Position numbers and translations under genes: made by a program
Notes under the pieces: model-generated
What the model was told of the DNA's origin: nothing
The model's input: only the letters and a program-made list of their open reading frames with translations
Database searches by the model: none
Shown here: positions 32,028-62,409 of the stretch, piece by piece
Numbering within the stretch: the first letter of the stretch is position 1
Layout: each line of letters begins with the position of its first letter
DNA from: Nitrospirota bacterium
Lineage (GTDB): Bacteria > Nitrospirota > UBA9217
DNA: 64,000 nt
Reading direction: 5' to 3'
Assembly (NCBI GenBank): GCA_963741205.1
Contig: CAVUHW010000026.1
Span: forward strand, 1-64,000

Positions 32028-32110
32028 GATCCTAACCTTGCATGTGGATTTTTGTCCTCTGATGAATAGTACGAGGATCAAGGGACTCAAAAAGGTGCAT
32101 ATGGGTTAGC

Positions 32111-36914: not shown

Positions 36915-36959
36915 TCTTGTTATTCCTCCTTATGTAAGATGACGACAGAGCCCGGATCA

Positions 36960-37246: not shown

Positions 37247-39037
37247 CTATTCCGCTCCGATACCCACGTACTCCCTGACCTTCTCGGCGTCAAACTTCTC
37301 CTGCGCCTCTTTGTCCGGCGCCAAAAGCGAAATGAGAATACCCATCAGGAACGCGGCGGCCATGGAATAGATACCGGGGTTCTTCAACGGGAAGATGGCC
37401 TTCGGCATGGCCGCGGCTGCGTCCTTCTTCTTCGCCGCAAGCTGCTCCTTCTCCGCTGTCTTTGCGGCGATGGATGCCTGCAGGTCCGCGTTCTTCTTCT
37501 CGGCGGCGGGTTTTTCTTTCTTCTTAAGCTTTGCGATCGCATCGGCGCTGATGATCTGCTTCTGCAGCTCGGCGATCTGCGGGTCGATGGCGGCCGCGGC
37601 TGTATCGATCTCCTTGATCTGGGCCTGGACCTTCGCCACATCGTCCTTGTGCACGATATCGAGCCACACGGTGGGGCTCAGGATGAGGAGCACGACCGCG
37701 ACAATGAGGCCGGTATAGATGCTCATCACCGCCCCATAGGTCGTGAACTTCTTCCACATGATCGACATGAGGAGCGCAGGGAAGTTCGCGCTGGCGGCGA
37801 TCGCGAAGGTGAGGCCGACCAGGAAGGCGACGTTCTGTCCCTTGAACAGGATGCCCAGAAGGATCGCGGTCGCGCCGAGAGCGACGGTTGCGATCTTCGC
37901 CACCTTCACCTCTTCCTTCTCATTGGCGACCCCGCGCCGGATCACGCCCACGTAAAGGTCATGGGAAAGGGCCGACGCGCCGGCCAGGGTGAGACCGGAG
38001 ACCACGGCGAGGATCGTGGCAAAGGCCACCGCGGACAGGAAGCCGAGGAAGACGTTCCCGCCGAGCGCCTCGGCCAGAAGCGGGCCGGCCATGTTGCCGC
38101 CCTTGTCGATGCCCATGATGACCTTCTGGCCCACGAGCACTGCGGCGCCGAAGCCGATCGTCACGGTAAGGATGTAGAAGTAGCCGATGAACCCGGTTGC
38201 GTAGAACACGGACTTGCGGGCCGCTTTCGCGTCAGGCACGGTGTAGAACCGCATCAGGATGTGCGGCAGGCCGGCGGTTCCGAACATGAGGGCAAGCCCC
38301 AGCGAGAATGCGTCAATGGGGCTGGTAACCAGACCGCCCGGTTCGAGGAATTTCTGGCCCAAGGGCGTGGCGACAGCCGCCTGTTTGAAGAGCTCGCCGT
38401 AGCTGAATCCGAACTTGTTCAGGGTCAGGATGACGAGGAGCGTTGCGCCGCCCAAAAGCAGCCCGGCCTTGATGATCTGGACCCACGTCGTGGCGATCAT
38501 GCCGCCGAAGATCACGTAGGAGATCATGAGAGCGCCGGTGATCACGATGGCCAGTTCGAAAGGCAGGCCGAACATGAGCTTGATCAGCGTGCCGGCGCCC
38601 ACCATCTGTGCGATGAGGTAGGTGAGCACGACGACCAGCGACCCGGCGGCCGCGGCCGCGCGAATGGGCCTCTGCTGCAGCCGGAAGGCGACGACATCGG
38701 CAAAGGTGTACTTGCCGAGGTTCCGGAGGGGCTCCGAGATCAGGAACATGATGATCGGCCATCCCACGAGCCAGCCCACGGAGTAGATGAGGCCGTCATA
38801 CCCCTTGGTGGACACGAGGCCCGCGATGCCCAAAAACGATGCCGCGCTCATGTAGTCGCCCGCGAGGGCGAGTCCGTTCTGGAAGCCGGTGATGCTTCTG
38901 CCGGCGGCGTAGAAATCTTTTGTGGTCCTTGTCCTTTTGGCCGCCCACCAGGTGATGAGCAGGGTGGAAATAACGAAGGCGACAAAGAACCCGATTGCAA
39001 CGGGATTGGCCTGTCCAATGATTGTTGTCTGCGGCAT
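37247..39037 (-). CDS. actP: Cation/acetate symporter ActP (SSF family)
   Basis: [41 protein letters not shown]. Confidence 0.92.
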
Positions 39038-39038
39038 G

Positions 39039-39350
39039 TTATCCTCCTACCTTTGCTATGACTTTTTTGACGAGCTCGTCATACTTCACATTGGCCCACC
39101 AGATGTAAATGCCCGTAAATACCCACGATCCCAGGATGGTCCCGACGGCAATGGGGATCCCGATCGTGGCCGCCCCGTCCGCGCTCATTTTCTGCGCGAG
39201 AAACGGCTTGTTGTACGCGATCAGGGCAATGAACCCGAAATACAGCACCAGTTCCAGTATCGTCAAGATGATCGAAATGGTGTTCTTCTGGCTGGATAAC
39301 TGCAGGAAATCCGGGTCGCTTAAGATGTCTTCCTTTTTTAATTTTGCCAT
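39039..39350 (-). CDS. DUF485 (YjcH-like) membrane protein
   Basis: Two TM helices, [19 protein letters not shown]; directly upstream of actP. Confidence 0.88.
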
Positions 39351-39385
39351 GCTTCATCCTCCTTGTGGTTATTTAGTGACGTGCG

Positions 39386-40099
39386 CTAAAAGTTGCTGAA
39401 TACGCTGGTCAGTTTGAAATTATCACCCCCTTTAAATGGAATTCCTATGCGTAAAAGGTTCCCAAGGTCATGAACACCCGCCTCGGCGAGGAGCGGAATT
39501 AACCGCTGAAACAACTGCGCCGTGGTGAACGCATCCATGACCGCATTGTGCGCCCCGTTTACCGCGATATCAAAGCACTTGACGATTTCGTGCAGCCGGA
39601 ATCCGGGGTGCGACGTGGCGGCGTAATCGGGGCACTTGTCCCGTTTCCTCAGCCATTCGTAGATGCTGAAGGTGTCCAGTGCCGGGTTCGGGATTTCAGT
39701 CCCCCGGATCCGCATCATGTCCCGATTGAGGAAACTGAGGTCAATCGAGATGAAGTGGCCCACGAGCACGGCTTCGCCGCAGAACTCCAGAAATTCTCCG
39801 AGCACGGCGTCGATGACCGGTTTCGACTCCACCTCCGACGGCGTGATTTCGTGGATCACCACGCTGGCCGCCGATAATTCGGTGCGCGGGCTGACGACCC
39901 GGTAAAACGTGTCCCCGAGGCCAATGCTCCCGCCGATCATGCGGACCGCGCCGATGGAGACGATGGAGTCCCTCTTCTCGTCAAGACCGGTCAGTTCCGT
40001 ATCCACGACCACGTATCGCGCGTCCGAGATCGGCGTCTTCTCGTCGATCGCCGCTGTTTTCTTTCTTTTTCTCTTGAACAGTCCCAACATAGATTCCAT
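39386..40099 (-). CDS. DEDDh 3'-5' exonuclease (DnaQ-like)
   Basis: VVDTELTG, LVGHFISID, HNAVMDA. Confidence 0.88.
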   Translation of the reverse strand: MESMLGLFKRKRKKTAAIDEKTPISDARYVVVDTELTGLDEKRDSIVSIGAVRMIGGSIGLGDTFYRVVSPRTELSAASVVIHEITPSEVESKPVIDAVLGEFLEFCGEAVLVGHFISIDLSFLNRDMMRIRGTEIPNPALDTFSIYEWLRKRDKCPDYAATSHPGFRLHEIVKCFDIAVNGAHNAVMDAFTTAQLFQRLIPLLAEAGVHDLGNLLRIGIPFKGGDNFKLTSVFSNF

Positions 40100-40176
40100 C
40101 GTCAGTCGTAGTCATCAGTCGTCGGTCGAATGATTCACTTGAATAGAGACTATTGACCGACTGACTATCGACTTTC

Positions 40177-42126
40177 CTACCAGATAAGCGATTTGTACCG
40201 TTCGATGATCATGTCCTGTATCTTCGTGATGAGATGGAACGCATCTTTGATCGATCGTTTCTCCAGATTGCTCAGCCGTTTCGGATTGATGAAATTATCG
40301 GGAGCCTCTCCCGCGCTGAGCTGCCTGAACTGGTGGTGGATCCTGAGGAGCATGATGAACTCGAAGGCTTGCTCGAGGTCGTCGGCGTACTCCTCGACGA
40401 TCGTGTGGAGCGGCCTTAGCGTCTCGATCCGCTCGAGCGTCGATGTCTCGTGGATCCCTTTCTCGAGCGCAAAGAGCCGGACGATGTCCACCAGCGGCGC
40501 CAGCCCCTTGACCTTGAGGTTGAGCAAGTCCTTGTGCTCCCCGCCCTTTTCCACCACAAAGGACTTGAAGAACCCGATGGGCGGCCTGTTCTTGATCGCC
40601 ATGTTGGCGAGATAGCCCAGAAACACCCTCTTGTCCCGGAGAAGGGCGTTCAGATCGTCCCGGAGCGTCTCGGCAAGAGTAATGTCGCCGAACATGGGTC
40701 GAAAGTCAAAAAAAGTCACCGAGTGCAGCACCGCGTCCGGCGTGGGCGTATCGATCCACGATGAAAAATATTTTCTCCACACCTTGAGCGGCTGGCGCCA
40801 GAGGGGATTGGCCGCCATGTAATTCGCAGGACAAAGCGGGACGCAGCAGTGGAGGAGCCCGTCCCTAACATCCTCGGCAAACGACGCGAAATAGCTGTCA
40901 GCCGCCTCCGCTTCCTCATTTGACGCCGGGTCCGCATAGATGATGGCGTTGTCCTGGTCGGTCTTGAAGGTCTGTTCCTTGCGGCCCTCGCTTCCAAAAA
41001 CGATCCAGCAATAGGGAACGGGCGGTTTGCCGTGTTTTCGTTCTGTGATTTCGAGGACTTTCCGCACGAGCCGATCGTTGACTTCGGTTATGATCTTTGT
41101 GATATTGCTCGCCTTTGCCCCTTCCTTGAGCAGAAGGCCCACGATGCCGTTGATCTTTTTCGAGACCGGGACGAGCCCTTCGACGGTCTGCTGGCTCTCT
41201 ATGTCCTTCGTAAGGGACAGAGGCGACGTCCCTTGCAGCATCATGAGGTCGTGGTTCGTGATCACGCCGGTGAGCTTGCCGTCCTTGATCACGAGGATGT
41301 GGTGGATATTGTACTTGATCATCCGGAGCACGGCTTCGAAGCAATAATCCTGCGCATCCACCCTGATCAGAGACGTGCTCATGATGTTCTTGACCGGTTC
41401 GTCCACGTTTCGTCCGCGAGACACGACCTTCTCGCGGAGGTCCCGGTCGGTCACCACGCCGACGGGAATATTGTTCCCGCTCATGATGACAACGGAACTT
41501 ATCCTTTTCTCGGTCATGATGGCAGCCGCCTCACGGATCGTCGCGTCCTCCTGCGTGGAGATGATGTCCTTGACGCCCATGTCCCCTACCCTCGTCGTAA
41601 ACAGGAGGCGGTCGCTCCCGCCGTAGAACATGCTCTTGTCCTGCATTTCGCGACTGGTCCGGTCGATGTACATCGAGACGTGCGATTTCAGGAAATACTC
41701 GGTGAAGGAAAGCTGGGCGTCCATGAGTTTTATGAGCATCTCCTTCCTGAGGAGGTAGCAGATCGTGTCGTCCACAGCCGAAACATTCGCCCGCACGCGG
41801 TGCTTGCCGATCATCGAGAGGAAGCCGAAGGTGTCGCCCTCGCCGCGGTAGTCAATCACCAATTCGCCGCCCTCGTCCGAGACCATAGAGAGCTTGACCC
41901 CGCCCTTCTTAATGATGCGGATTGATTCGCTCGGCGGGTCGTCCTGTTTCATGATCAACATGCCCTTGGGATAGAACTCCATGGACACGTTGCCGGCAAC
42001 TGCCTGAAGGTTCTCGTCGTCGAGGAACTGGAAGGGCGGCACTTTCTTGAGGAAAGCTACAACCTCGTCGATAATTATGTCATGACCGGCTTGATTTGAA
42101 CCAGGTAGGGACCTCATGCCTAACAA
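40177..42126 (-). CDS. cNMP-binding + CBS pair + DUF294 nucleotidyltransferase protein
   Basis: PPFQFL cNMP domain, GVVTDRDLR CBS, FGSEGRKEQ...DQDNA, FFDFR, LKVKGLAPLVD. Confidence 0.9.
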   Translation of the reverse strand: MLGMRSLPGSNQAGHDIIIDEVVAFLKKVPPFQFLDDENLQAVAGNVSMEFYPKGMLIMKQDDPPSESIRIIKKGGVKLSMVSDEGGELVIDYRGEGDTFGFLSMIGKHRVRANVSAVDDTICYLLRKEMLIKLMDAQLSFTEYFLKSHVSMYIDRTSREMQDKSMFYGGSDRLLFTTRVGDMGVKDIISTQEDATIREAAAIMTEKRISSVVIMSGNNIPVGVVTDRDLREKVVSRGRNVDEPVKNIMSTSLIRVDAQDYCFEAVLRMIKYNIHHILVIKDGKLTGVITNHDLMMLQGTSPLSLTKDIESQQTVEGLVPVSKKINGIVGLLLKEGAKASNITKIITEVNDRLVRKVLEITERKHGKPPVPYCWIVFGSEGRKEQTFKTDQDNAIIYADPASNEEAEAADSYFASFAEDVRDGLLHCCVPLCPANYMAANPLWRQPLKVWRKYFSSWIDTPTPDAVLHSVTFFDFRPMFGDITLAETLRDDLNALLRDKRVFLGYLANMAIKNRPPIGFFKSFVVEKGGEHKDLLNLKVKGLAPLVDIVRLFALEKGIHETSTLERIETLRPLHTIVEEYADDLEQAFEFIMLLRIHHQFRQLSAGEAPDNFINPKRLSNLEKRSIKDAFHLITKIQDMIIERYKSLIW

Positions 42127-42637
42127 AGTAGCAAATTAGATACCAGTTTTCGGACAAAAGAGCCGGCTGTCCACTTTGAAGGTGATAGAGTAGGGCACAT
42201 CGCGGGAGAGGGACAATGAGAAAAAACTAAAGAAGATCGTCGCAATGGCGCCATAACGCGTTAGTGGATTTAAAAAACCATTGATTCAACAGGTTCTCGG
42301 CGCCATGACAGTTTCAACAAACAGCAACAAGGACCGCATATAAGGCTCGAATAAAATTTAGATTAATAATAGATTACACATTATAACTGCACTCTTCACG
42401 ATATTTTTTTTTAGCCATGCTTTGGGTCAACTGAGGGCGGTCCATTTTCCTTCTGCTTCGTAACAAAAAGTAATGGTGAAGAAGAAAAAAAAGATACGAA
42501 AAGTAACCAGACAAAAGGGCCGTGCCGACCTTCGAAACCTTATGAAAGCAAAACAATAGCACTCTCAATAAGTCGCCGGCCACGAACCGATGTGAATTGT
42601 TACTGGTCTTAAAAAATGTAGCGCTTAGCAAAAAGGA

Positions 42638-42730
42638 TGTCATTCCCGATCTCAATCATCTCATCTGAGCGGGAATCCATTTTTAAATAATGGAACAATG
42701 GATCCCCGATAGAGATATTCGGGGATGACA
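42638..42730. repeat. GTCATTCCC...GGGAATGAC palindromic element, copy 1
   Basis: tgtcattcccg...cgggaatcca...tggatccccg...cggggatgaca. Confidence 0.75.
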
Positions 42731-42892
42731 TACCAGTTGATATGTGATTAAAGATATACAATAACGCGACAGACAATTAAACTGCTAACCGGTACAACCT
42801 CCTGATTATTCTGCTATAATCTGTCTATCTTTTCAAGACAACGCGTGTCCATTCAAACTTCAATCTTTCATCTCGGATATCCGGGAGTATCC

Positions 42893-45800
42893 ATGATAAA
42901 TTACAGGTTCGACGTCGTCATCATCGGCGCAGGTCCTGCCGGTGTGACCGCAGCAGGCGCCCTCGCGGGCAGCGGAATATCCGTTGCCTTGCTCGAGGCC
43001 GGGGTGTATGCAGGCGCGGAAAACTGGTCAGGCTGCGTTTACTTCACGGAGAGCCTCGCGGATCCGGACTGCTTCGGGTCTGCCGCGGTCGAGGCAGCTC
43101 CCTTTGAGCGTCGTGTGACGAGACGTGGCACGCTCCTCCATAACGGCCTGGACGTGGTTGGCGTCGAACTCACTGAGCCTTCGGCCTTCAAGAACTGCTA
43201 CACCGTGCTCCGGCCGGTCTATGATCCCTACTTTGCGCACCTGGCCTCCGCAAAAGGCGCCGTTCACATCACGGAAACGACCGTCACCTCGCTCATCCGA
43301 AAGGACGGCAGGGTCATCGGCGTCCAGACGAACCGCGGACCTCTCTACGCCGCTATCGTCTTCATCGCCGAGGGCGACGCGTCCCATCTCGTTCGGTCGG
43401 AACAGCTCGAACGCGTTCCGGAGCCTCACTACCTCCAGGGCGTCAAGGCGGTGCTCTCGCTCGCTCCGGAGGAGATCGAAAAGCGGTTCGACCTCAAGCT
43501 CGGGCGAAGGCTGCGCGTACGAGATTCTCATCAGGAACGCGCAGATCGCGGGAAGGACCGCGAGACTGAACGTCGGGCGGCTTCCTGTACACGAACAAGG
43601 ACAGCCTGTCTCTGGGTTATGTCCTCCCCCTGGACAATCTGAAAAACCATTACCAGGGCGACCACGACCGGCTCTTCGAATGGATGAGGGGCCTCCCTTT
43701 CATCAAGGAACTCACCGGTGACGCGAAGCTCTCGGCATACGGCACCAAAATCGTCAGGAGCGGCGGATGGAGCGAACGGCCGGTCCTCGTCGAGGACGGA
43801 CTCGCTGTGGGAGGCGCGTCTGCGGGGCTCGGTATTGACATTCCCTTTCCGAATTTCACCGGCCCGGCCTCGGCCACGGGACTCCTGTTCGCCCGCGCAG
43901 CGAAGGTTATTCTGGGCAAAGGCCGCACTCCCGATATAAAAAACCTTACGAAGGAATATCTCGTGCCGCTCCAGCGAGAGCGTATACGGAAAGAACGCGC
44001 GGTATCTTTCCCAATGGCCCCGCTATTTCGGAAAGTCGTCCGTGCTCTTCGGAAGGACCGTGGACATGGCCTGCGGCAGCGCGCATTTCCTTTCGACCGG
44101 GAGTTATGTGGAGACGGGGAGGTTCCTCAGAAAGCACATCCTCTCCTTCCGCGGGCTCAGGGAATCGACAGGCGACACCCTGCGCGCGATTGGCAGCCTC
44201 CGGCTCTGGAAGCCGATCGTCAAGACGATCGTGAACCCCGTCACGTGGGGCACATGGATTTCAAACATCCTTTCGCAAAAAGCCTGCCGACAAGCGCCTA
44301 GAAATCATCATGAGCATCGGAGGCAGACGGGTAGAGGCATCTTCCCTTCCCTGGCCCGCGGGCCCGCTCCTCAAGCGCCTTTCCCCGGCTCTCTCCCGCG
44401 CCATCAGGGCGGTCTATGCCAATGACGATGTCCCGGCTGAGAAGAAGTTTCCCGAGGCCATCGAGATCATGATCCAGTCTCTGAGCCTTTCGGACTTTAT
44501 CGTACTTCCTCTCTTCGGCCTTACCCTCTTCTGCCTATCTGTCCTCACCGCGTCGTGGGACGCCTTCCGGTTTTACGTGCTCAAGACGCCGGTCGCAAAG
44601 CTCCTCGCGGAGCCGGTGATGGCATACAACGAGGAGCAGAGAAAGGCGCGGGACCTCGACGCGATAAAACCCGCGATCGGATTCGAGGCCAAGCTCGCGA
44701 CAAACACTTACCGCGTGGGGAGCGAGTCGCATATCAGGACGCTCTGGCCCGCGTCGCTCGTATCACAGCCCGAGATGTCGCGGGCCTCGCTGTGGTGGGT
44801 CTGTCCTGCCCGGGTATACGGCTACGATGCGCCGCTTTCCGGCCGCGGTAAAGTAACGGTGAATTTCGAGAACTGCATCAAGTGCGAATCCTGCTGGAGG
44901 GCCGAGCCGCGTGCCGCCCTCTGGGGCAGGCATACGGACCACAAACTCATCTACCGCCCCGAGAGCGGCGCGATCCCGGCGCTCCTGGATTCCTCTGAAG
45001 CGATGGACCATCCCGCCTCCACCCCCCCCGTCAAGGGAGGGGGAACTCAACCCCTTGTTCCCTGGTGGGAGAGTGCAGGGGAGAGGGAGAGTTGAGCTTC
45101 CGTCGATGAAAGCTCTGGAACCTGAACGAGGATATTCTTCTCGCTTCCCGTGAAGCGAAAAGCGCATCGGCCGCTTTCGTCGATGCTGTCTCGAAGCTGC
45201 CCGCGTCAGCGGATGAGGGCAGAAAGGCCTGGCCCCTTGCTCTCGGAAAACGGCTCGGCGCGAAGCTCCAGAGGCTCGAATCAGCCCTCTTGAACGACGG
45301 CAGGCACGAGCCCGCACAGGTCATTCAGTCCGATCGAAAAGACATAGAGCAGCGCCTTGCTGATGACAGGCTCTTCCATGCGCTCTACTGCTGTCACCGG
45401 CTTGAACAACGGCTCGATGCATGGTTGTCAAATACCCCCTTCGCGAAAAGGGGGATCGAGTTACGTCCCCCGACGCCGGCCCTGAGCGTAGCCGAAGGGC
45501 AAGGGGCGGACAATGGAGGACTCGCGGTTTCCTATGAAGAAGTTTTAGCGATCTTCCCGGACCGGATCGTGAAAGAGTGGGAAGAGGCGCCCATGCCCGA
45601 AACGTGGGTTGGAACGCTTCGAAAATTCATCGCCGAACATCGCGAGGCCCCTCTCGAAACGATACGCGCCCTCTCCTCGGTCAGCCCGGCACTGGGCCTC
45701 ATTGCAGCGCATCAGTTCTCGGCGCTGACCATTTTAAAAGAAGGCGGCATCAGACTCGACCCTGGCATCTGCGCGGTGCGCGCCGACCATCTTGACATCC

Positions 45801-48800
45801 GGGAGAGCATCGACACGCGTCCATCTCACGGGAACGCTCAAGCTCATCCCCCTTGCCGCATGCAGCGCCATCCTCATCATCGCGCGGGAGAGAGGGCACC
45901 TCGTCCCGCTCTCCTCCGCGGGCATCACGGTCACCCCCACTCCCGCGATCGGATTCCGGGCCGCGGGACTTGCCGATGTTGCGCTCAACTGCACCGTAAA
46001 GAAATACGCTATCATCGTTCCGGAAAAATCAGCGGATCCCGACGCAGCATCATACCTCGCCATCGCCCTGGGGGCAGGCGATTATCTTTGCAAGAGGATC
46101 AAGGAGCATGCACTGGGCCGGGTCCAGTTCCCGGGTCAGATGCTCGACACGGAAGGACGTGACGGCATCGCGAAGCTCGGCGCGGTCAAGGCCATGATCG
46201 CCAGGACCGAGGCCTGGCGCCTCCTCCTGGAAACGCTGTACGACACTATCATCATATCCTCTCCCCTCGGGGGAGAGGACAGAGGTGAGGGGGGTTCGCC
46301 GCATTCCGCACTCCGAAAGGAGCCCGCCCTCGAAGGCTTTTATCGGGGGCAATCCGAAATCCACCTTGATCTTCTCTGCTCCACCCTCGCCGCCCTTGCT
46401 TACAGCCCCGAGCCCGGCAGCATGGGTTACGACGCGGGACAGGTCTTCGGAGGTTTTGCCTATTCCGAGGATGACCTCTTGTCTCGTTTCTACCGCGACA
46501 GCGCGCTCTTTCGGTTTCTCGCCCCCGGATACGGGGCCGCTGAAAAACTGAACGCCTCGCTCGTTACCGGCATTCCGCAATCCGCATTTCGAGACGAGCC
46601 CCTGAATAAACTTGCCCGAAAGCTTGCGGAACTCGACAAAAAAAACGCCTCCCTGCCGGAGAATGCGGACCCCGGGCTTGCCGGACAGGCGAAGGCTCTG
46701 GTCGTCGGCATACAGCTCGTGCTTGCGAAGACGGAGGACGGGCTCGCTTCCGGTGAAAGCATGGAGGCCGAGGCAGCGGCTGCGGAAGTGCTGATCGGGC
46801 TTGCAACGGATGCATTAAACAAAGCGGCGTTGTCCTCCGGATGGGGGATGGTGCAGCCGGCCGCATTCCTTCCCGTGGAACCGGTTGGCAAGGCGGTCGC
46901 GCTTGACCCGGATTACGAGTCCTTCTGTACGGCAGCCGGGACACCGCACAAATCGGGCGGTTTTTTCTTCACGACCTTCGACCGCTCACCCCGCTTCGTT
47001 CCCGAGATACAATTGCACGATCCGCGCCTGCGCGCCCGCTGGACGGAACTCGCCGGCTGGTTCAAGAAGAACTGCCGGGACCGGAAATACGACGGGCTCT
47101 TCATCGAACGGTATATCGAAAAAATCCACGGACTTCCCCCGGAGGTAATCGAAGCAATCAAAGAGCGCGGCTGGCTCGCCACCTATATCCCGAAATCGGA
47201 GGACGGCCTCGGCTGGCGCAAGGCCGAGTACTACATCCTGAATGCCGTGGCCGGGAGCTTCGGCGACGCGGGCATCAACCTGCTCATCATGGCGAACACG
47301 AGCATCGGCACCACTCCCATCCTCCTCGGGCTCGAGGAAGAACTTCCGCGCGTACGCGAGGAGCTCGCTCCCCTGGCGCAGGACTCGAACAAGCTTGGAG
47401 AGATAGGCGCAAGGCTGACGAAGCTCATCGCGTCCTTTCAAAACCCCAACCCCTCGTGGATCAAGAAAGAGTACGAGGCGGTGATGAAGCTCGTTGACGA
47501 GCGCATCCGCCATACACGCGTGGTCAAGTACCTTGCCGCCAATTTCCTGCGCGCTTTCTACGGCGCAGGCATTGCCGGACGTCGCGGGGACTTCGGCGGA
47601 TTCATGACGAACCTCAGGCGGGCCGCGGAATTGTTCGGACACGTCATGCCCGATGTGCGCGCAGCGCTTGAGGAACTCCCCCGGCGGGAGCGCTGCCACC
47701 GCCTTTTCCTCCGGTACCTCGGTCACGGCGCGGTGAGCGCCTTCGCCCTGACCGAACCGACGGCAGGCTCTGATTCCGGAGGCGTCAAGACCACGGCCAA
47801 ACTCAGGATCGTCAAGCTTACCCCCCTCGAGGACGGCAGATACGCCTTCCGGCTCGATGAAAGGGACGAAACAAGCGTCCGCTACCTGATCGACGCGGAC
47901 AGGATCATGTTCCTCGAACACGGCATCGCGTATCGGACTCCGGATGGCGAGTCTGCCCCGATCCGGTATGACCGCTATGACTACGCCACGGACCTGGGCA
48001 TCCGCGCTTACCGCTATCAAGACAAGGACTGCGAGTTCCACGACATCGGCCAGGTGCGTTCGTCCGACGCTGGTCCGGTGTATGAATTCTTCAGCCTCAC
48101 GGGCGCAAAGATGTGGATCACGAACGGCAGCATCTCGACCCAGCTCTGCCTCTACGCGCAGACGACGGAGGGGGTCACGGGCTTTATGGTGGACCGGCAT
48201 GCGGAAGGCCTCAAGGTCGGCGCGGACGAGAAGAAGATGGGGCAGCGGGGTTCGCCCACGAACGAGATATCCATCGACAGCGTGCGAGTGCCGCGCGAGG
48301 CCGTGATCGGGTACGAAGGTCATGGCCAGGTGAACGCACTCGAGACGCTGAACGTGGGACGCTGCGGCCTTGCGGTCGTTTCAACCTCGCTCATGCACAA
48401 GCTTCTGGAAGAGGCGACGCTCCTGGCGCCCCCGTCTCGCGAGCGGGACCGCCTCCTTGGCGAAGCCGCAGCGGTGCTCTTCGGGAGCGAGTCCCTCGCC
48501 TTCTACCTGATCGGCCTGTTCGACCGGCCCCATGAGTCGGTCCGCATGGAATCGGCCGTCGCGAAGTACGCCTGCTCCGAGGACATCCACGAACTGATCT
48601 CGCTCGTGGAGCGCGCCTTCGGCCCTGCCGGACAGACCGAAAAATTCCTCCTTGAGAAGGCGCGGCGCGACGCACGCATCCTCACGATCTACGAAGGCAC
48701 GAATGAAGTACAGCGATTTTTGATCCTGAAGGACCTTATCGCCCAGGCAGCGGTCTGGCCCGAGCTTGCGGCAAACCCGGATGACGCGAGGGCCGCAACG

Positions 48801-50962
48801 CTTGCTTCATGGAAGAACCGCCTGAGAACGTTTGTCAGGAATGCGGCGGACCTGCTCGGCGACACAGCCTGGTCCGATGCCATGCTCCAGCCGGCGTTCT
48901 TTCCGCTCGCGGAGATGGCCGCGGAGACGCTGCGGCTCGAGTGCATTTACTATCGAATTGAATGGCTCGATGCGCGAAAGGAGCTTCTGGCGCAGTCCGG
49001 ATTGGAATATGAGCCCCTTATCAAGGACGCCGGCAAAAGGGCCGCGGAGAGGACCGTGTCGCGCCTCGAAGGGCTCCTCGCAAAATATGAGCCTCTGTGG
49101 GAAGAAGTGCGCATAAACCATGATCCGGCAGAGGTGCGCGCAGCCGATGCGGCGCTCGACCGGGCTGCTGTACCGGCGAGCGCGCTTCCCGGGCGGATGA
49201 CGCCGCTTCTGGCCCCGTTCCGGGTGCTCGCCATCCTCCGTCCCGTTGCCGATCTTGCGCCCTCTCCCCGACCTGACCGACGGTTCGATTGCCGAGCTCG
49301 TGTGGACCGGCGATCCCCTCGATTGCTCCGGCCTTTTCCAAGCCCTGACGCTCAAGGAGCAAAGCCTTGCGAAGGTCGACGTAGACGTGCTTTTTGTCGG
49401 CGGACCCGAGCACGAAAGTGTCCTTCGCTCGTCCGCCGCCGGGGCGGACAGATTCATGCGATTGGACCACGGCCACGGCTCACCCGCGGCGCTTGCAGAC
49501 GCAGTGCGAACGCTGGAGTTTTCTGGCGCCTATGACCTCATTACGATCGGGTCCCTGTGCCGCGACGGAGAACAGGGCATCGGCGCATACCTTGCCGGCG
49601 CTCTCGGAAGGACGCACTTTCGGAAGGCCCGGCTCCTGATTCGGCAGGACGGACTGGGGCTGGAGCATATAACGCCGCCGGCTGTCGTCGAAACTACGGG
49701 AGCGACTTCTGCCCGCGAGGCGCATATCGCGAAGATCGTTGAAGCGGCGTCAGCCCGCGTCACAACGCTCCATTCCTCCGACCATGCGGCCGCTACCCTG
49801 CTGCCGAGGTTCGAACGTCCTGCCGGAGCCGCGACCTCGACAAAGACGATGACAACGGTGTCCGACATTGCGGATTATCTCAAGACTTATGCCGCCAGGG
49901 CCCGTTCAGCCCAGGCGGAGGAATACCGGGGAAGCGTCATCCCGGCAGGTCCAGCCCATGGGAATGCAGTCTGGGCGGCCCTCGACCCGCGGGAAATGAA
50001 AGCAAACGCCGCGATCCTTTCCGCAGGCAGACAGCTTGCAGACCTGTTCGAAATGCCCGTAAACGCGGTCATACCCGCGCCGCGTGCCCTTTGGCCGCAG
50101 CTGGCGGGCCTGGCGCGATCGAACGGCGCGAACTGCGCCTACTGTCTCGACACCGGCGCCGGGATGCTCTCCATCGAAGGGAAGCGGGAACTTTTGCGCA
50201 TTCTCTCGAAAACTGCGGAACGGCCCCTGGTCCTCGGCGGCTCATACTGGATTGATGCCTTCGGGCTTGTTGCCGGCGAACTTGCTGCCCGCCGGAGAAA
50301 CGCGCGCGTAATCGGAAATGTCGGAGCGATTTCGTCACAAGACCGCGGGGCTGCGCTGCTTTCGATTCCCGCCTACGACGGCAGGCTCATTCGGAAGGAA
50401 CGACTGGAGCAGGGCGCGGCGTTCCTGACAATCTCGCAGGACGCAGGAGTCAGGGCGGAGAAAATCCAAAGCGACTTTTCCGCTTTCGCACTCGAGTATT
50501 CGCTCAGCGAGACGTGGCTCATGCCCCTTCCGGCCGAAGCCGGACCGACCCTCACCCAGGCCGACGTGATCATCACCCTGGGCTACGGGATCAGGGACCG
50601 CGCTGGTCTGGAACTGGCGCAGGAACTCAAGAAGAAGCTGGAGGCCCTGGGACTCACCCCCCTGTTCGGCGCCACGCGCAAGGTGACTCAGGATTTAAAA
50701 CTCCTGCCGCTCGAGGCGCAGATAGGCCAGACCGGCGTCCGCGTAAACCCCGGTCTCATCATCGCCCTCGGCATCTCCGGCGCACCGCAGCACATAGACT
50801 ATGTTGGCACACGGGCCGAGATCCTCTGCTTCAACAAGGACCCCGACGCGCCCTTGATGAAGCTGAACCAGACTCGTCCCTCGCCGCGGGTCCATCCCAT
50901 CTCCGGGGACCTCTTCGTTACGGTGAGGAGAATTGATCGATAAACTAGGGCAACCACGTTAG
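42893..50962 (+). CDS. Putative single ~2700-aa fusion: FixC/ETF-QO flavoprotein + 4Fe-4S + degenerate ACAD + ACAD + EtfB + EtfA (about 8-10 frameshifts)
   Basis: IIGAGPAG; CPARVY...NCIKCESC; RVQFPG and QVFGGFAY; FALTEPTAGSD, GAKMWITNG, KKMGQRGS, IYEGTNEVQR; RVLAILRPVAD...DPLD; GATRKV, QIGQTG, GISGAPQH; fragments overlap in shifted frames without internal RBS/ATG. Confidence 0.7.
45011..45090. repeat. REP-like palindrome pair inside coding linker
   Basis: cccccccg-tcaa-gggaggggg and ttccc-tggt-gggagag..ggggagaggg, same family as 19918-20001. Confidence 0.6.
45435..45520. repeat. Nested palindromes inside coding sequence
   Basis: ccccctt-cgcga-aaggggg and gccct-gagcgtagccga-agggc within cccc...gggg. 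Confidence 0.6.
46257..46361. repeat. Compound repeat insertion, in frame within ACAD-like domain
   Basis: tcctctcccc-tcg-ggggagagga + ccgcattccgcactccg + ccctcga..tcggggg + caatccgaaatc. Confidence 0.75.
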
Positions 50963-51004
50963 ACAAGACAACTCATCTTGCGCAATAAGAATTGGAGACG
51001 GGAC

Positions 51005-51688
51005 ATGATCCGTGCTAAAGTTATTTCCTTCATCGCCTGGGCCATGATTTCTCTTTGGGGCAGGACGGCGCGCATCCTTTTCGAGAATCGGGAAATAGCG
51101 GGCCGGCTGAAGGCGGAGGGGAAAAGCTTTATCTTTGCCTTCTGGCACGGCGACCTGTTCCTGCTCACGTACTCCCACCGGGGGTCAGACGTCGTCATTC
51201 CGGCAAGCGAAAGCAGAGACGGCGAGATCATGGCAAGGCTCTTGAAACGCTTCGGCTACCATGTGGTGCGCGGATCGAGCAAGCGCAAAGGGGCCAGGGC
51301 CGCTATCGGCCTTATCGAAGGACTGCGCAGCGGGAGACATCCCGCCATAGCCGTAGACGGTCCGCGAGGTCCCCGGCATGAAGTGAAGGAGGGTGTCGTA
51401 TATCTTGCCGGCAAGCTGAAGGCGCCTATCATTCCCGTTGCAGCGAGGGCAAAACGTTATTGGGTTTTGGAAAAAACCTGGGATAAACTCATGATCCCCG
51501 CCCCTATGACGGACGCCCTGATATTATACGGCGAGCCGGTTATCGTCAACGGCACTTCCGAAGAGGAGATCGAGTCAAAGCGCAAGGAGTTGGAAAGGGT
51601 CATGCTCGGGCTCACGCAAGAAGCGCAAACGCGTGCAGAGGCAAAGGCCTCGCCTTCATGGTGGTCTCGCTGGAGCAGAGTGGGTTGA
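51005..51688 (+). CDS. Lysophospholipid acyltransferase family protein (DUF374)
   Basis: FAFWHG, SESRDGE, VRGSS, VDGPRGP, WDKLMIPAP. Confidence 0.88.
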   Translation: MIRAKVISFIAWAMISLWGRTARILFENREIAGRLKAEGKSFIFAFWHGDLFLLTYSHRGSDVVIPASESRDGEIMARLLKRFGYHVVRGSSKRKGARAAIGLIEGLRSGRHPAIAVDGPRGPRHEVKEGVVYLAGKLKAPIIPVAARAKRYWVLEKTWDKLMIPAPMTDALILYGEPVIVNGTSEEEIESKRKELERVMLGLTQEAQTRAEAKASPSWWSRWSRVG

Positions 51689-51732: not shown

Positions 51733-52761
51733 TTATTTTTTCGTCAGGAGAAATTCGAATACGTAGAGGATCAGGAGCACGAACCATCCGCCGAGGATGA
51801 TGAATTCGAGCGTCGCGCGGTAGGAAACGCTGAAGTTTTCCGTCGCCATGGTGTAGATGTCTTCAAGTGTGTCGAGTTTTTCCTTGATTTCGGCCTTCCA
51901 GTTGTCCAGGTGAAATTTCTTCGAAATGAGGGAGTAGAGCTTTGCGGAATACCAGTCGCCTATCAGCTTGATGTTCCGCTCCACAGCCTCCGACTCCAGG
52001 ATCGACAGCGTCCGGATCTCGATGATTTCCTTCACGACCTTCCTGACTTCTCCGGAGCTGATGATGGGAAGCCGTTTCGAAACGCCCATGAGACGCAGGG
52101 TCTTTTCGAGCCGTTCGTCGAGATCGTAGTCGAGTATGCGGGATTTCAGAAGCTGGAGGTTGGCGATCTCGAAAAGCTCGATATTGCTCTCGAAGTCTCC
52201 CGAGGAATCGAAAATGAACGCGCCGTCCCAGTCCACGATCGTGATGTCGTCCTTGCCGTATTTCAGATAGGTGGAAAGCGTGGCCTGCACCTCTTCCTCG
52301 TCGAGAGCGATTTTTTCGTTCTTGAGAAACGCGGCAATCTTGTCCCCGTGCAGGGTAAGGTAGACTTCCGGGTCTCCGCTGTAGCCCGATATGCAATAGA
52401 CGCTGTACTCCTCGTCGAACTGAGGGTCGCAGCCGAACTCACCCAGGATTTTCCTGCATTCCCCGATAAGCGAGCGTTTGAACTCCAGCGTGGTGTCCGC
52501 CAGGATGTCGTCCATGTCGAGCGAGGCCTCGACGACCACCACGTCCGGTAAATACGCCTTGACCACGAAACCTACCTCGACGTCCTCGACCTCGTGATTT
52601 TCGACCTTGATGATTTTCTGTTTGGGGATGACGTCCGGGTAACTCGGGGCGCTTTTGACGGCCTTGAACTCCACGACATTGGAGGTCTCGAGGTTCATTC
52701 CGGTCTCACCGAAGAGAAACACGACGAGTCTGCCGGGCATCGGTTTTATTTCCGGGTCCAA
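51733..52761 (-). CDS. Conserved hypothetical protein with C-terminal TM helix (RMD1/DUF155- or CorA-like architecture)
   Basis: Acidic soluble domain, ITIVDWDGAFI, EIANLQLL, IGDWYSAKLY, LEFIIL TM tail; start may be 52740. Confidence 0.7.
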   Translation of the reverse strand: MDPEIKPMPGRLVVFLFGETGMNLETSNVVEFKAVKSAPSYPDVIPKQKIIKVENHEVEDVEVGFVVKAYLPDVVVVEASLDMDDILADTTLEFKRSLIGECRKILGEFGCDPQFDEEYSVYCISGYSGDPEVYLTLHGDKIAAFLKNEKIALDEEEVQATLSTYLKYGKDDITIVDWDGAFIFDSSGDFESNIELFEIANLQLLKSRILDYDLDERLEKTLRLMGVSKRLPIISSGEVRKVVKEIIEIRTLSILESEAVERNIKLIGDWYSAKLYSLISKKFHLDNWKAEIKEKLDTLEDIYTMATENFSVSYRATLEFIILGGWFVLLILYVFEFLLTKK

Positions 52762-52807
52762 ATCAGTTCACCTTCCAGAGACTTTGATACATTGGTAAAC
52801 GAGATAT

Positions 52808-53320
52808 TCATTCTTCCGGCACTTCCGGCTCATAGGGAAACTCATCGGCGGTCAGGGCCTGAAATCCGAAAACGGCCAGGGAGACAAGCCCCCATGCCAG
52901 ACCCACGACCACCCCGCCGTCGATGATACCGCGCCAGGGTTGCGCAAGGAGCCGCACCAGGATGACCAGCACGATGATTCCCGCGGTCACGGAAAGGGAC
53001 GTGATCTGCCGACGCCGCGGCGCATGAAAATATGCCATGCAGAACAAGGGGGCAAGAAGCATGTGGAGCATATTGCGATGAGTCAGGAGGTACCGCGCCC
53101 GGGCGGCAACGCGCGGAGAAAACGCCTTCTGAAACGCCCGGTATCCTTCTGCATAGGCCATGAAAAAGACCACAACAACGAAGCCAGTCCAGTGGAGCCA
53201 GTGCCATTGATAGGAAAAGGCATCGAGCGCCAGCGGCGTCAGCCGGAAAACAGCGCTGCCCAGCAGGAGGATGACCCCTGCCAGTCCCCAGTATGCCCCG
53301 CATTTTCCTGTCACCTGCAT
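52808..53320 (-). CDS. Hypothetical membrane protein (~4 TM)
   Basis: GGAGGA RBS; FMAYAEGYRAFQKAFSPRV, PWRGIIDGGVV. Confidence 0.75.
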   Translation of the reverse strand: MQVTGKCGAYWGLAGVILLLGSAVFRLTPLALDAFSYQWHWLHWTGFVVVVFFMAYAEGYRAFQKAFSPRVAARARYLLTHRNMLHMLLAPLFCMAYFHAPRRRQITSLSVTAGIIVLVILVRLLAQPWRGIIDGGVVVGLAWGLVSLAVFGFQALTADEFPYEPEVPEE

Positions 53321-53470
53321 TTCCTCCGTGGAGTGGAATCGCGATGGGAAAATCATATGGTGGTCAGCGTGGGAGAGACAGTAACCGGGTTTGCTGTCGA
53401 TGTGGTGCGCTCCGGACAGCGGTCTGAGAGGCCTTACGATATCTATCGATGAGCCAGCATCATGGCCTTG

Positions 53471-54610: not shown

Positions 54611-56181
54611 TTATAAATCATTCCCCGAATACGACTGATTAAAGCTCTTATTGCATACCGGGAAATCGGGGACGATGTTCCCGTGGATGCACTGCTCCAG
54701 CCCGAGCCAGTTCACGCTCGAGGGGTCCCTCACCATGCAGCGGTTGATCTCCCCGGCGGCCCCGACTGGACCCAGTAGAGGATCTCACCGCGCCAGCCCT
54801 CGACAGCCGCAAATCCGCACCTGTCAGGCAGCGGCGGGCTGACCGGGGCGGTAATTGCTCCGTCCGGCAGGGTTTTCAGGATCTCCCGGATGATCCGTAT
54901 GGAGTCCCTGATCTCTTCCACCCTGACCCATGCCCTGGCATGGACGTCACCGGAGACGAGCACCGGTATGGTCACGCCGATGTGGTCATAGGGAGGGAAT
55001 GGATCGTGGATGCGGCAGTCGAGGTTCAGGCCGCTTGCGCGGGCCACGAAGCCCACCACGCACAGGTCCCTCGCCTTCTCGGAGGTGAGGATGCCGGTGT
55101 CCCTCACCCGGTCCTCGACGGAGGCGTTTTCGTCATAGATGACGACGAGCCTCTCGAATTCCTTCGCCAGCCAGTCCATTTCCGAAAGGATCGCCTGAAC
55201 GCCGCCTGCGTCGATATCAACGGCCGTACCGCCCGGAACGACCTTGTCCATCATGAACCGGTGACCGAAGAGCCTGAGGTTCGTGCGCAGAAGTGCTTCC
55301 TTCAGCCTACTGAACTGATACAGCAGGATGGCGAAGGCCACGTCATTACAGATGGCGCCGAGGTCGCCCAGGTGGTTCGCGATGCGCTCCCGCTCGAGAA
55401 ATAATGCGCGAAGCCACAGGGCGCGGTCGGGCGGCGCGCACCCGGTCATGGCCTCGACTGCGCGCGAATAGGCCAGGCTATGCGCGACCGTCGTGTCGCC
55501 GGACACGCGGCCTGCCAGTCTCGATGCCTCGTCCCAGGAAAAGGACTCGAACCGTTTTTCGATCCCCTTGTGCACGTAGCCCAGTTTTTCTTCCAGATTG
55601 ATGACGTCCTCTCCCACGGCCTGGAAGCGGAAATGTCCGGGCTCGATGATGCCCGCGTGCACGGGGCCGACGGGGATCTCATAGACCCCCTCGCCCTCGG
55701 CCCGGATCCAGCGATATTCGCCGTAGACCCTCGGCATGCGGCTTGAGGCGTCAAAGGACTTTCTCAGCGGCCAGGCATTCTCCGGCCAGTCTTCATGCTT
55801 TATCCAGGGACGCGCGTCGGGATGGCCGGTGGCGGTAACGCCCATGAGACTTTTCATCTGGCGCTCGAACCGGAAGGCAGGAACAAATTTTTTCGTGAGG
55901 CTGGGAAACGTCGGATCGTCAGCGGGAGCGAGTGTCTTTACGATCAGGTATTCCGTCTCCCTCCGGTAACAGGCATAGATCCCGAATCCCCGTTCGAAGG
56001 CGGTCTCATCCGCCGCCCATTCGGCGGCAAGCAGGGCATATTCCTTCTTGAGTGCTTTTGCCGCTTCGGCAAAACGCTCCCGCGGCACGAGAAACATGGC
56101 AACGGAAGAAGGATACTGGCCTTCCACTGCTTTCGCGTCCGGGCCGAATTTTGATAATATGAGCTCTTTTAACTTGGCCAT
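54611..56181 (-). CDS. HyfG/NuoCD-like large subunit lacking NiFe cysteines (Ehr), copy 2; frameshift ~54760
   Basis: VGPVHAGIIEPGHFRF, YVHKGIEK, RVSGDT, VEGWRGE, DFPVCNKSFNQSYSGNDL. Confidence 0.88.
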
Positions 56182-56295
56182 GTCAAACACCCGAGGGACG
56201 ATGGACGAGGGTCGAGAGACGAATAGTCTTTGCGTCCATCGTCCCAGTGAGCGAAACAAGCGGTCGTCCGTCACTCATCAGAAGTAACCTTCCGT

Positions 56296-57752
56296 TCATT
56301 TCAACAGCTCCACCGCCGTCTGGAACCACCCGGCGAGGAACTTCGGCATATAGAGGCCGAGAACGAGTACCACCGACATGTGCAGTATCACCGGGACATG
56401 TGCGACTTTAAGCGGTGCTGGTAGGGAGGCCGTTCTCCCGAGACCATGGGCTGCACCCTTCTGAAGAGCGCCGCAAAGGACACGCCGAGCCCCAGGAGGA
56501 GAAACGGCGCCAGGAGCGGCGCGTCCTTGATCGTGGCCGTCAGGATCAGGAACTCGCTGGTGAACACGCCGAAGGGCGGCATCCCGACGATCGCCATGAC
56601 CCCGAGCGCCAGCCCCCACCCGACGAGAGGATTGCCGCGGATCAGCCCTTTGATCCTTTCCATCTCCTGGGTCCTGTGCATCTGCGAGGCGTGGCCCACG
56701 GTGAAGAAGATGGAAGACTTGGTCAGGCTGTGGACCAGCATGTGGAGAAGCGCCCCGAAGGTCGCCACCGGGCCGCCGAGGCCGAAGGCGAAGGTGGCGA
56801 TACCCATGTGTTCGATGGAGGAATAGGCAAAAAGCCGCTTGATGTCCTTCTGCCGCAGAAGGGAGAAGGAGGCGACGATGATCGAGAGGATGCCGAAGCC
56901 CATCATGATATCGCCCGAATGGTGCGTCCCGGTGGAGCCGTCCACGAGCACTTTGCACCGCACCAGCGCGTAGAGCGCGATGTTGAGCAGAAGCCCCGAG
57001 AGCACAGCGGAGATGGGCGTGGGGCCTTCACTGTGCGCGTCGGGCAGCCAGTTGTGGATGGGCACGAGCCCCACCTTGGTGCCGTATCCCACCATGAGAA
57101 ACACAAAGGCCAGAGACAGGATCGTCGGTTCGAGCTGGTTGCTTACCTGGTATAGATTCGTCCAATGGAGAGCCGCGCCGCCTTCGCCGAGCACCTTTTC
57201 CGCCGCAAAGTACAGGAGCACGGTGCCGAAGAGCGCGAGGGCGATGCCCACGCCGCAGAGGATGAAATATTTCCACGCGGCCTCGATCGCGGCCGGCGTG
57301 CGGTACAGGGACACCAGAAGGACCGTGGACAGCGTGGCCAGCTCCATGGCGATCCAGAGAATGCCCACGTTGTTCGTCAGGAGGCAGAGCAGCATGGCGA
57401 AGATGAAGAGCTGGAACATGGCGTGGTAGAAACGAAGCCGTCGGTGGCCGATGGTGCCGTGCTCGCGCTCACGCCGCATATAGCGCCTGCTGAAGATGGC
57501 TGTGGTCATGGAGACAAAGGCGGTGAGAACCGTCAGGTAGACACTGAAGGCGTCGACGAAGAAAAAATTATTCCCCGCCAGGATCGAGCCGTGCTCATAG
57601 ACCTGGAGCGCAAGCTGGATGCTCGCGACAAAGGTCGCGGCGGAGCCGAGGATGTTCACCTCGGGCGCAAGCTTCCGGTCGCCGACGAATGCCAGCGCCA
57701 GGGCCGACGACGAAATAGAGCGGAACGCCTAAGAAGATATGAGAAGCTCCAT
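56296..57752 (-). CDS. hyfF: HyfF-like antiporter-type membrane subunit (frameshifts near both ends)
   Basis: EAAWKYFILC, GTKVGLVPIHNWLPDAHSE, AYSSIEHMG. Confidence 0.85.
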
Positions 57753-57760
57753 CGAGAACC

Positions 57761-58426
57761 TCAGTCTTCTTCCTTCAGCCTCGCCATCTGGTCCACATCG
57801 AGGCTGTCGAAGGTGGTGCTGATGTGGAAGAAAAACATCCCGAATATGAACGCCGCGATCAACAGGTCCAGGGCCACGCCCAGCTCGACCACCAGGGGCA
57901 TGCCGTAGGTGGCGCTCGTGGCTGCGAAGAGGAGCCCGTTTTCCATGGCGAGGAACCCGATGATCTGGGTGACCGCGTGCTTTCTGGTGATCATCATCAG
58001 GAAGCCGAGCATGACCGTGGCGAGGGCGACCGCCAGGGTGGACCGGGTCACGAGTGTGGAGAGCTCCCTGATGGGAGCGGTAAGATGATAGGAGAATATC
58101 ACCAGAACGATCCCCATCAGCATGGTGGTGGGGATGTTCACCACCGTCTCCACTTCCTTGTGGATCTTCAGCTTAACGATCAGCTTATGCAATATGTACG
58201 GCAGGAGGACGACCTTCATCGATAGCGTCAGGATGGAAGAGATGTACAGATCGTGTTTGCCCCCGACATACCCGACGATAGCGGTGCTGACGGCGAGCAG
58301 GAACCCCTGCCACGCGAACAGGTGCAGAAGGGCGTTCATCCTCCGCTGCACCACCAGGGCAAAGGCGGTAAGGAGGATCATGGCCGCGAGCAAGCTGTTG
58401 ATCTGCGCTGCAAGGTGCATGTTCAT
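57761..58426 (-). CDS. hyfE: HyfE-like membrane subunit
   Basis: QIIGFLAMENG, MPLVVELG..LD. Confidence 0.85.
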   Translation of the reverse strand: MNMHLAAQINSLLAAMILLTAFALVVQRRMNALLHLFAWQGFLLAVSTAIVGYVGGKHDLYISSILTLSMKVVLLPYILHKLIVKLKIHKEVETVVNIPTTMLMGIVLVIFSYHLTAPIRELSTLVTRSTLAVALATVMLGFLMMITRKHAVTQIIGFLAMENGLLFAATSATYGMPLVVELGVALDLLIAAFIFGMFFFHISTTFDSLDVDQMARLKEED

Positions 58427-58449
58427 GTCATTCCTCTGATCATTCAATT

Positions 58450-58533
58450 TGTCATACCTGCGGAAGCAGGTATCCATTGGCTTGTAAGATTTACGTCAAA
58501 ATGGATTCCCGATAGAAGCATTCGGGAATGACA
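58450..58533. repeat. GTCATTCCC...GGGAATGAC palindromic element, copy 3
   Basis: tgtcatacctgcggaagcaggtatcca...tggattcccgatagaagcattcgggaatgaca. Confidence 0.8.
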
Positions 58534-58571
58534 CGAAAGTTTCGCTGTAGTACTATTCGGCGCTTGCATGA

Positions 58572-59517: not shown

Positions 59518-59542
59518 TAGTTCATTCCTCGGTTTAATATTC

Positions 59543-59632
59543 GTCATTCCCGCGAAAGCGGGAATCCAGGTTGACTTTTACTATACAAATAAAAACTCTC
59601 TGCGATTCCCGATAGAAGCATTCGGGAATGAC
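59543..59632. repeat. GTCATTCCC...GGGAATGAC palindromic element, copy 4
   Basis: gtcattcccgcgaaagcgggaatcca...gattcccgatagaagcattcgggaatgac. Confidence 0.85.
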
Positions 59633-59657
59633 AATATAAGTTGCTCTGCGATGTTAC

Positions 59658-61703: not shown

Positions 61704-61844
61704 GTTCCTACCTCCGGAAAATCAGAGCCTTCAATCGATCATGAAACCGGTCAGTGCACGTGTTATTTCACAACAAGTTCATTGTGGTTCAGCTGTTATC
61801 AAAAATTTCCTTCCCCTCAAAGGGAGAACCAAGAAATGAAAGCC

Positions 61845-62384: not shown

Positions 62385-62409
62385 ATCTGCTTCCTGAAAT
62401 ATCCTGCTG

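Follow-up and report, generated by a model that had tools for sequence, protein, structure and literature searches.

Textbooks present acyl-CoA dehydrogenase (ACAD), electron transfer flavoprotein (ETF) and ETF:quinone oxidoreductase (ETF-QO) as separate proteins that dock transiently, and the movement of the ETF head between its partners is still being studied. The stretch of DNA considered here (the window: positions 1 to 64000, forward strand, of contig CAVUHW010000026.1 from a Nitrospirota bacterium) carries at 42893-50962 on the + strand what is, with a probability of roughly 75%, a single gene encoding one flavoprotein of ~2,690 residues (~290 kDa) that unites ACAD, ETF and quinone reductase, the frame breaks in the window copy being explained by assembly indels and the protein working by the mechanism proposed below. 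The initial annotation had read a single-chain ACAD/ETF/ETF-oxidoreductase protein from the letters of the window; its observation is partly confirmed, and the evidence supports its central claim of a fusion. The canonical chain from ACAD through EtfAB to ETF-QO (2a1t, 1efv, 2gmh) shares all four kinds of module and, on this reading, the electron path, and ETF-QO resembles the quinone-reductase part in having one 4Fe-4S cluster and one FAD. Unlike in the canonical chain, all modules here lie on one ~2,650-aa polypeptide, and the ACAD comprises a degenerate and an active-looking module with large insertions, paired within the chain. The quinone-reductase part resembles FixC more closely than ETF-QO and contains in addition a 190-residue helical insert.

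Other described systems share parts of this architecture. The heteromeric alpha2beta2 ACADs of actinobacteria pair a catalytic subunit with a degenerate one that completes the FAD site; here, both modules are fused in one chain within a larger protein. FixABCX/EtfABCX of Thermotoga maritima (7koe) provides the best match of the N-terminal module by sequence and by fold, and its EtfA and EtfB match too. However, it is a four-subunit complex that lacks an ACAD and bifurcates from NADH, whereas in the present protein ACAD modules share the chain with FixC, a single-cluster FixX-like motif, EtfB and EtfA, and the pattern of conservation does not support bifurcation. In Bcd-EtfAB and CarCDE (5ol2, 6fah) an ACAD is bound to its own ETF, and the best matches of the fused protein include CarC, CarE and CarD, but these systems consist of separate subunits, have no quinone-reductase module and act as bifurcating reductases. 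SaETF of Sulfolobus acidocaldarius carries EtfB and then EtfA in one chain, as here, but is an ETF only, of about 600 aa, whose partners come from neighbouring genes (PMC12042025). Butyryl-CoA reductase (BCR) of Fusobacterium nucleatum combines a Bcd domain, the EtfA C-terminus and rubredoxin and likewise joins an ACAD to the FAD-binding part of EtfA; it differs in having no EtfB, EtfA domain I or FixC/FeS (iron-sulfur) module and in passing electrons to a flavodiiron protein and O2 (PMC12288474). No rubredoxin family was found in Pfam scans of the window and its orthologues. A fusion of ACAD, ETF and quinone reductase as a whole is not described in the full-text literature searched, that is, in main texts as opposed to supplements (the networks in Figs S10-S11 of PMC12042025 could include such fusions).

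The fusion is unbroken in relatives of the window gene. The whole region is collinear, in the same order, with orthologous stop-free open reading frames (ORFs) of 2622-2676 aa in 13 of the 13 loci fetched, and neither stops nor separate starts occur at the module junctions of these close homologues. With the ACAD part as query, 41 related genomes yielded 13 places with stop-free open frames of 2639-2690 aa. Mechanical calling gave an ATG start to 12 of the 13 orthologous ORFs and a TTG to one (locus L021), in which the TTG was called 20 codons upstream of the common MKQYRFDV start; the window ATG at 42893 is the start common to the orthologues. With the last frame break allowed for, the true stop of the window gene is at 50960-50962.

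Uninterrupted homologues of more than 2500 aa, which the initial annotation had proposed to seek, are also found beyond these loci. When the family-specific middle part (alignment A2) was used as query against 401 genomes, all sampled from the window's own phylum, 49 genomes matched and 29 of them hold open frames of at least 2600 aa. By family, the matches fall in 40 of 63 genomes of the window's family, in all seven of a second family and in one genome of a third; none were found in other families of this sample. Within the genus the distribution is patchy, as three nearly complete genomes (G001, G008 and G010, 96-99% complete) gave no match to the middle part. Neither did G005 (74% complete), yet the search with the ACAD part found a piece there. 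In G019, where the middle part found no giant gene, an ETF_alpha match of 70 bits, a low score typical of the giant protein, lies in a 219-aa open frame (C2:134053-134298).

In a collection of 5.8 billion proteins, E<=1e-10 is reached by 432, which are 1449-4613 aa long. The 120 best of these 432 all carry Pfam families of the FixC type of FAD-oxidoreductase and/or of ACAD and ETF_alpha, and are mostly 2600-2920 aa long, the shorter ones being partial. The organism names attached to the database proteins are Nitrospirota, Nitrospiria, Leptospirillia and Acidobacteriota, and the genome behind a single 'Betaproteobacteria' label is itself placed in the window's genus. The fused family occurs in three Nitrospirota families and, by source names, in Acidobacteriota. 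The nearest full-length database protein is 73% identical to the window copy; a near-identical intact copy by which the linker indels could be placed was not found among these proteins. More distant is a 2716-aa ORF of an uncultured bacterium (locus L025), which has the fused form at a best-segment identity of 34%. This locus and L024 (Nitrospirota) came from a contig scan with two patterns, in which at least two fused forms stand among 80 loci kept; one of the patterns (G[AS]KMWITN) occurs in all ACADs, and the scan is uninformative on distribution. Two Balneolaceae loci of the scan (L052 and L057) contain ordinary separate genes. In public records the fused proteins go only by the automatic names 'acyl-CoA dehydrogenase family protein', 'FAD-binding protein' or 'ETF-QO'. 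They form a widespread, undescribed family of single-chain ACAD-ETF-quinone reductase fusions, of which the window copy is very probably a badly assembled member.

While the orthologues are intact, the region 42806-50962 (+) of the window is a chain of overlapping open frames and not one long ORF (42845-43642, 43684-44301, 44310-45095, 45290-46162, 45792-49535 and 49246-50943, all on the + strand). Intact orthologues of 2636 and 2642 aa align to it by tblastn collinearly through frames 2>3>1>2>3>2>3>1, and a nucleotide alignment with 10 orthologous genes places breaks near 43500, 43575, 43973, 44284, 45005-45110, 45816, 49272 and 50929. The copy thus contains at least eight breaks, mostly single extra bases, and about 8-10 indel corrections are needed; the near-continuous frame requiring a single correction, as first annotated, does not hold. 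The first two breaks (43498..43502 and 43573..43578) are each one extra base in a GGG run, and the third (43971..43975) is one extra base; all three are placed by tblastn together with the orthologue alignment. A +1 shift follows at 44270..44288, and single extra bases recur at 45814..45818, 49266..49273 and 50926..50930. The last of these shifts the apparent stop from 50960-50962 to 50941-50943 and hides the true C-terminus. Breaks are less tidy in the variable linker (44964..45115, residues 691-725), where the alignment is disordered over 45004-45108, runs of C8 and G5 occur and two frames contain TGAs (45093-45095 and 45107-45109). Read against 13 orthologues, the best solution for 45004-45108 takes at least three indels in or beside C8, G5 and A3 runs. 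The downstream frame is open from 45110 (KLWNLNEDILL), as annotated. The earlier claim that one added A joins it to the upstream frame stands in so far as an A at 45109-45111 yields VDE-KLW as in the orthologues; however, TGA 45093-45095 is still in that frame, so at least one further indel must lie upstream in the C8/G5-rich linker.

Short-read contigs from four public sequencing runs, of other metagenomes, lack exactly one base at several of these sites: at 43573 and 44286 (run X2), at 45818 (X2 and X4), at 49266 or 49272 (X1, X4 and X6) and at 50926 (X6). Apart from these, the only indels listed in those contigs are two that compensate each other, seen in a minority at a conserved stretch of high depth. 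The comparison has no cover at 43896-44169 or across 45005-45110, and cover at 43500 is unclear. At 48666-48700, 35 bases around the YEGT codons, the depth spikes because many contigs of unrelated organisms match only that stretch and diverge on both sides.

The breaks are very probably assembly errors. Once corrected, the frame has no stops in 2660 codons, and the protein keeps 564 of the 572 columns that are invariant in 13 orthologues; of the eight changes, one is D to T and the others are conservative. In a leave-one-out comparison, the rate of departure from invariant columns is 1.4% for the window copy versus 0.5-1.7% for seven intact orthologues of the same genus. The same assembly carries indel errors in an essential gene, as its rpoC (G000:C13:85702-89702) is split by two +1 shifts into open frames of 159, 1106 and 340 aa; in G002 and G009, rpoC forms one uninterrupted frame of 1391 aa, and rpoB of the window genome is whole. 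A genome-wide scan based on GC content at third codon positions found 349 +1 versus 194 -1 overlapping pairs of coding-like ORFs; the scan is crude, flagging one of the at least eight breaks here and including false pairs, and only its +1/-1 asymmetry is used. The many one-base insertions in the assembly mean that gene calls need frameshift-aware handling. Broken copies of the fused gene are also seen in G231 and G243, genomes of few contigs and low completeness. Elsewhere in the window, same-strand overlapping pairs or triplets of coding-like frames at 390-3465, 22926-24912, 27834-29091, 29528-32105 and 34938-36929 are likely to be similar frameshifts.

Several points weigh against assembly error as the explanation. 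The contigs without the extra bases are only 95-97% identical where they cross the breaks and come from relatives, not from this strain, while the sites at 43500 and 43973 and the linker fall outside the contig check. At least eight breaks crowd into 8 kb, versus about six candidate breaks in the other 56 kb of the window, and nearby ORFs of 596-1008 aa are whole; a density so far above that of the neighbours calls for a local cause or for a young pseudogene. In that case the window copy would be real but recently inactivated, with the frameshifts present in the cells, and the patchiness of the gene in the genus (its middle part has no match in G001, G008 and G010) indicates that loss does happen. 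Decay of this kind is nevertheless improbable, given the absence of in-frame stops, the retention of invariant residues at the rate of intact orthologues and the nature of the events, nearly all of which are one-base insertions with the same signature as in the essential rpoC of this assembly. Bacterial gene decay is usually biased towards deletion, which counts further against a pseudogene. It is scarcely credible that the breaks are bypassed by programmed frameshifting or that each piece is a polypeptide of its own, and nothing speaks for either beyond the breaks themselves: the break sites share no slippery motif, most pieces lack starts (they are stop-to-stop frames) and the orthologues are unbroken at these places. 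Assembly error remains the preferred explanation of the breaks.

The domains, their order, their fusion and the conservation of cofactor-binding residues can be observed directly along the gene (42893..50962, +; ~2,690 codons after frame correction, delimited by tblastn collinearity). All features below are on the + strand, and residues are numbered as in the 2636-aa orthologue P0001. The chain begins with a FixC/ETF-QO-like FAD domain (42893..44215, residues 1-440) that has a GAGPAG Rossmann motif and matches the Pfam families DAO and FAD_oxidored, among others. Its profile match to FixC (7koe_C; E 6.2e-44, over 3-435) covers the whole chain, and Foldseek likewise ranks 7koe_C first (TM 0.76 by target length), followed by ETF-QO 2gmh. 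The AlphaFold2 (AF2) model of this domain is mostly at a predicted local distance difference test score (pLDDT) above 80. A helical insert follows (44216..44783, residues 441-630; AF2 helices at pLDDT 82-93), within which a hydrophobic helix at 44487-44573 is a putative membrane anchor. The corresponding Kyte-Doolittle peak, at residues ~530-560, is seen in all 13 orthologues and is the top peak in 12.

Next comes a four-Cys 4Fe-4S motif of the ETF-QO/FixX type (44784..44963, residues 631-690; Cys codons at 44802, 44874, 44883 and 44892). The motif CPARVY...CIKCESC is present as annotated, and its four cysteines (C637, C661, C664 and C667) are invariant in 13/13 orthologues and retained in the window. 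The Pfam family Fer4_ETF_QO stays below its cut-off of 24 bits, with 19.4 in the window and 16.9 and 15.4 in orthologues. Beyond the variable linker already described, whose limits are drawn from the alignment, a four-helix linker (45116..45529, residues 726-850; AF2 helices 15-114 of slice A5, pLDDT 74-93) leads to the dehydrogenase part.

Two ACAD modules had been annotated, and both have an ACAD-like fold, but only the second looks like a working enzyme. Module 1 (45530..46940, residues 851-1300) is an alpha-beta-alpha structure with extra helices, modelled by AF2 at pLDDT 80-92. It matches no Pfam family in the window or the orthologues; its best PDB profile match is an ACAD, 4m9a, at a weak E of 0.0012, and Foldseek retrieves ACADs at 11-17% identity. 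The column equivalent to YEGT holds no Glu. In hhalign, module 1 and module 2 align with an E of 0.25 and a probability of 0.2, and their relatedness is not apparent from sequence alone. Module 1 is thus a degenerate ACAD-like fold and not a second working ACAD. Module 2 (46941..48740, residues 1301-1900) exceeds the cut-offs of all three Pfam domains, with 25.4 bits for Acyl-CoA_dh_N, 60.4 for _M and 63.6 for _1 (cut-offs 22.9, 33.3 and 22.4), and its PDB matches are VLCAD, CarC and ACAD9 at E near 1e-40. It contains two large insertions of about 130 and 75 residues. TEPTAGSD is encoded at 47751-47774 and the YEGT Glu codon lies at 48693; both motifs (T1571...D1578 and Y1884-E-G-T1887) are invariant in 13 orthologues, and the Glu and Ser are retained in the window. 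In ACADs the YEGT Glu is catalytic and TEPxAGSD is the FAD motif. The module is followed by an ACAD C-terminal tail that runs into EtfB (48741..49220, residues 1901-2060; 19 of 160 columns invariant in alignment A1).

The two modules are predicted to pair with each other. Modelled together with FAD, they gave an ipSAE of 0.84 (median of three runs) versus 0.00 for the best of three controls, with partner pLDDT of at least 87 and at least 97% of contacts in agreement between the runs; of 80 solved complexes 58 attain the ipSAE mark applied, as do two of 110 mismatched pairs. On module 2 the predicted interface covers the stretches with TAGSD and YEGT, on module 1 that with QVFGGFAY...RDS; it corresponds to the usual ACAD dimer face.

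The ETF part continues on the same chain. The 1265-aa ACAD ORF (45738-49535), which holds the three ACAD Pfam domains, includes RVLAILRPVAD in its frame, and EtfB and EtfA both lie in the ORF 49246-50943, as initially described; they share one ORF in 13/13 orthologues too and are not two subunits. The EtfB module (49221..49851, residues 2061-2270; positions 18-216 of profile A4) is weakly conserved, with 11 of 210 columns invariant. Its profile matches range from E 1.6e-11 to 4.3e-6 (4kpu_B 1.6e-11, 5ol2_B 1.4e-10, human 6e-10), and Pfam ETF PF01012 (cut-off 26.7) reaches 24.9 bits in one orthologue and finds nothing in the window. EtfA spans residues 2271-2636. Its domain I (49852..50451) is placed by a profile match to residues 62-391 of CarE (6fah_A), and domain II (50452..50950), the FAD-binding head, matches Pfam ETF_alpha at 67.9 bits (cut-off 27) and has 57 of 166 columns invariant. 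By part, the share of invariant columns is 50% in the ACAD C-domain, 40% in the FeS motif, 34% in EtfA domain II, 31% in FixC, 7% in EtfA domain I and 5% in EtfB. A conventional EtfA (129 bits) adjoins an ordinary ACAD elsewhere in the same genome (G000:C31:59110-61932) and represents a second, separate ETF system. A separate EtfA of this kind, better-scoring and beside an ordinary ACAD, is found in the same genomes as the fused protein, so the latter is an extra, dedicated system.

From this anatomy we infer a substrate, a direction of electron flow, an acceptor and a membrane attachment. Acyl-CoA would be oxidized at the FAD of module 2, with module 1 completing that FAD site in the manner of partner subunits in ACAD dimers. 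Electrons would then go singly to the FAD on a mobile EtfA domain II, which would swing to the FeS/FAD quinone-reductase module; this module, anchored to the membrane through the hydrophobic helix, would reduce (mena)quinone. The conservation pattern favours such a linear chain, since the domains that hold its cofactors (ACAD FAD, electron-transfer FAD, FeS and FixC FAD) are 31-50% invariant versus 5-7% for EtfB and EtfA domain I. With odds slightly better than even, one ~290 kDa polypeptide would form a complete respiratory input chain, consisting of an intrachain ACAD pseudo-dimer, a tethered ETF with a shuttling FAD head and a membrane-anchored FeS/FAD quinone reductase, and would carry electrons from acyl-CoA to menaquinone through three FADs and one 4Fe-4S cluster without a diffusible partner. 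Set against this mechanism, module 2 is poorly modelled in the single-chain fold and the FeS region of the model is at pLDDT <40; the predicted pairing of modules 1 and 2 may reflect only their likeness to solved ACAD dimers; and PDB scores overlap for bifurcating and canonical ETFs and do not separate the two.

A real fused protein could also run in reverse, as a quinol-fed enoyl-CoA reductase, or bifurcate electrons through its flavins with NADH and ferredoxin, as a combination of FixABCX-like and Bcd-like parts. Consistent with this, the nearest relative of the N-terminal module is the FixC of the bifurcating EtfABCX (7koe_C), and the best ACAD and EtfA matches include CarC and CarE of the bifurcating caffeyl-CoA reductase. 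In addition, the organisms seem to be anaerobic and hydrogenase-like membrane complexes lie nearby, and the fused EtfB-EtfA of Sulfolobus is reported to bifurcate (PMC12042025). However, conservation is lowest in EtfB and EtfA domain I (5% and 7% invariant), where the bifurcating FAD would sit, whereas the electron-transfer FAD domain is 34% invariant. FixX carries two clusters, and here only one four-Cys cluster is conserved. Moreover, the separate and better-conserved EtfA beside an ordinary ACAD (129 vs 71 bits) could serve reductive or bifurcating roles. Taken together, reverse or bifurcating operation appears unlikely, and the linear route from acyl-CoA to quinone is preferred. If so, the fused gene would mark a dedicated route of acyl-CoA oxidation in uncultured Nitrospirota and Acidobacteriota from soils and sediments. 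With every partner tethered to the others in a fixed ratio, such a natural chain would also be a ready object for cryo-EM and for the kinetics of ETF head movement.

The surroundings of the gene are not conserved. A DUF374 gene (50978..51688, +; Pfam DUF374, E 4.7e-23), taken to be acyltransferase-like, starts 15-42 bases past the true stop of the fused gene and had been read as a hint of lipid acyl-chain chemistry. It was found at none of 15 related loci, so the hint is without support and the gene is not a conserved partner. The same holds for the other neighbours in the window (DUF294, exonuclease, SSF and two unknowns), which were found at none of these 15 loci in flanks of 1-6 kb, and the genes that flank the orthologues do not match those of the window. 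Upstream of the fused gene and divergent from it, the stretch 37247-42126 (-) encodes an SSF symporter, a DEDD exonuclease and a cNMP/CBS/DUF294 nucleotidyltransferase. The 765-bp gap that separates this group from the fused gene (42127-42892) is AT-rich, with a GC content of 0.43-0.45 versus about 0.60 around it; no promoter-like site was found on its + strand, and the window has no Rfam match. Downstream, at 51733-53356 (-), two coding-like ORFs of 342 and 182 aa have no Pfam match. They are followed at 54730-63965 (-) by a membrane-bound hydrogenase/Mrp-like cluster that comprises a Complex1_30kDa+49kDa fusion of 514 aa, two Proton_antipo_M proteins and one Oxidored_q2 protein.

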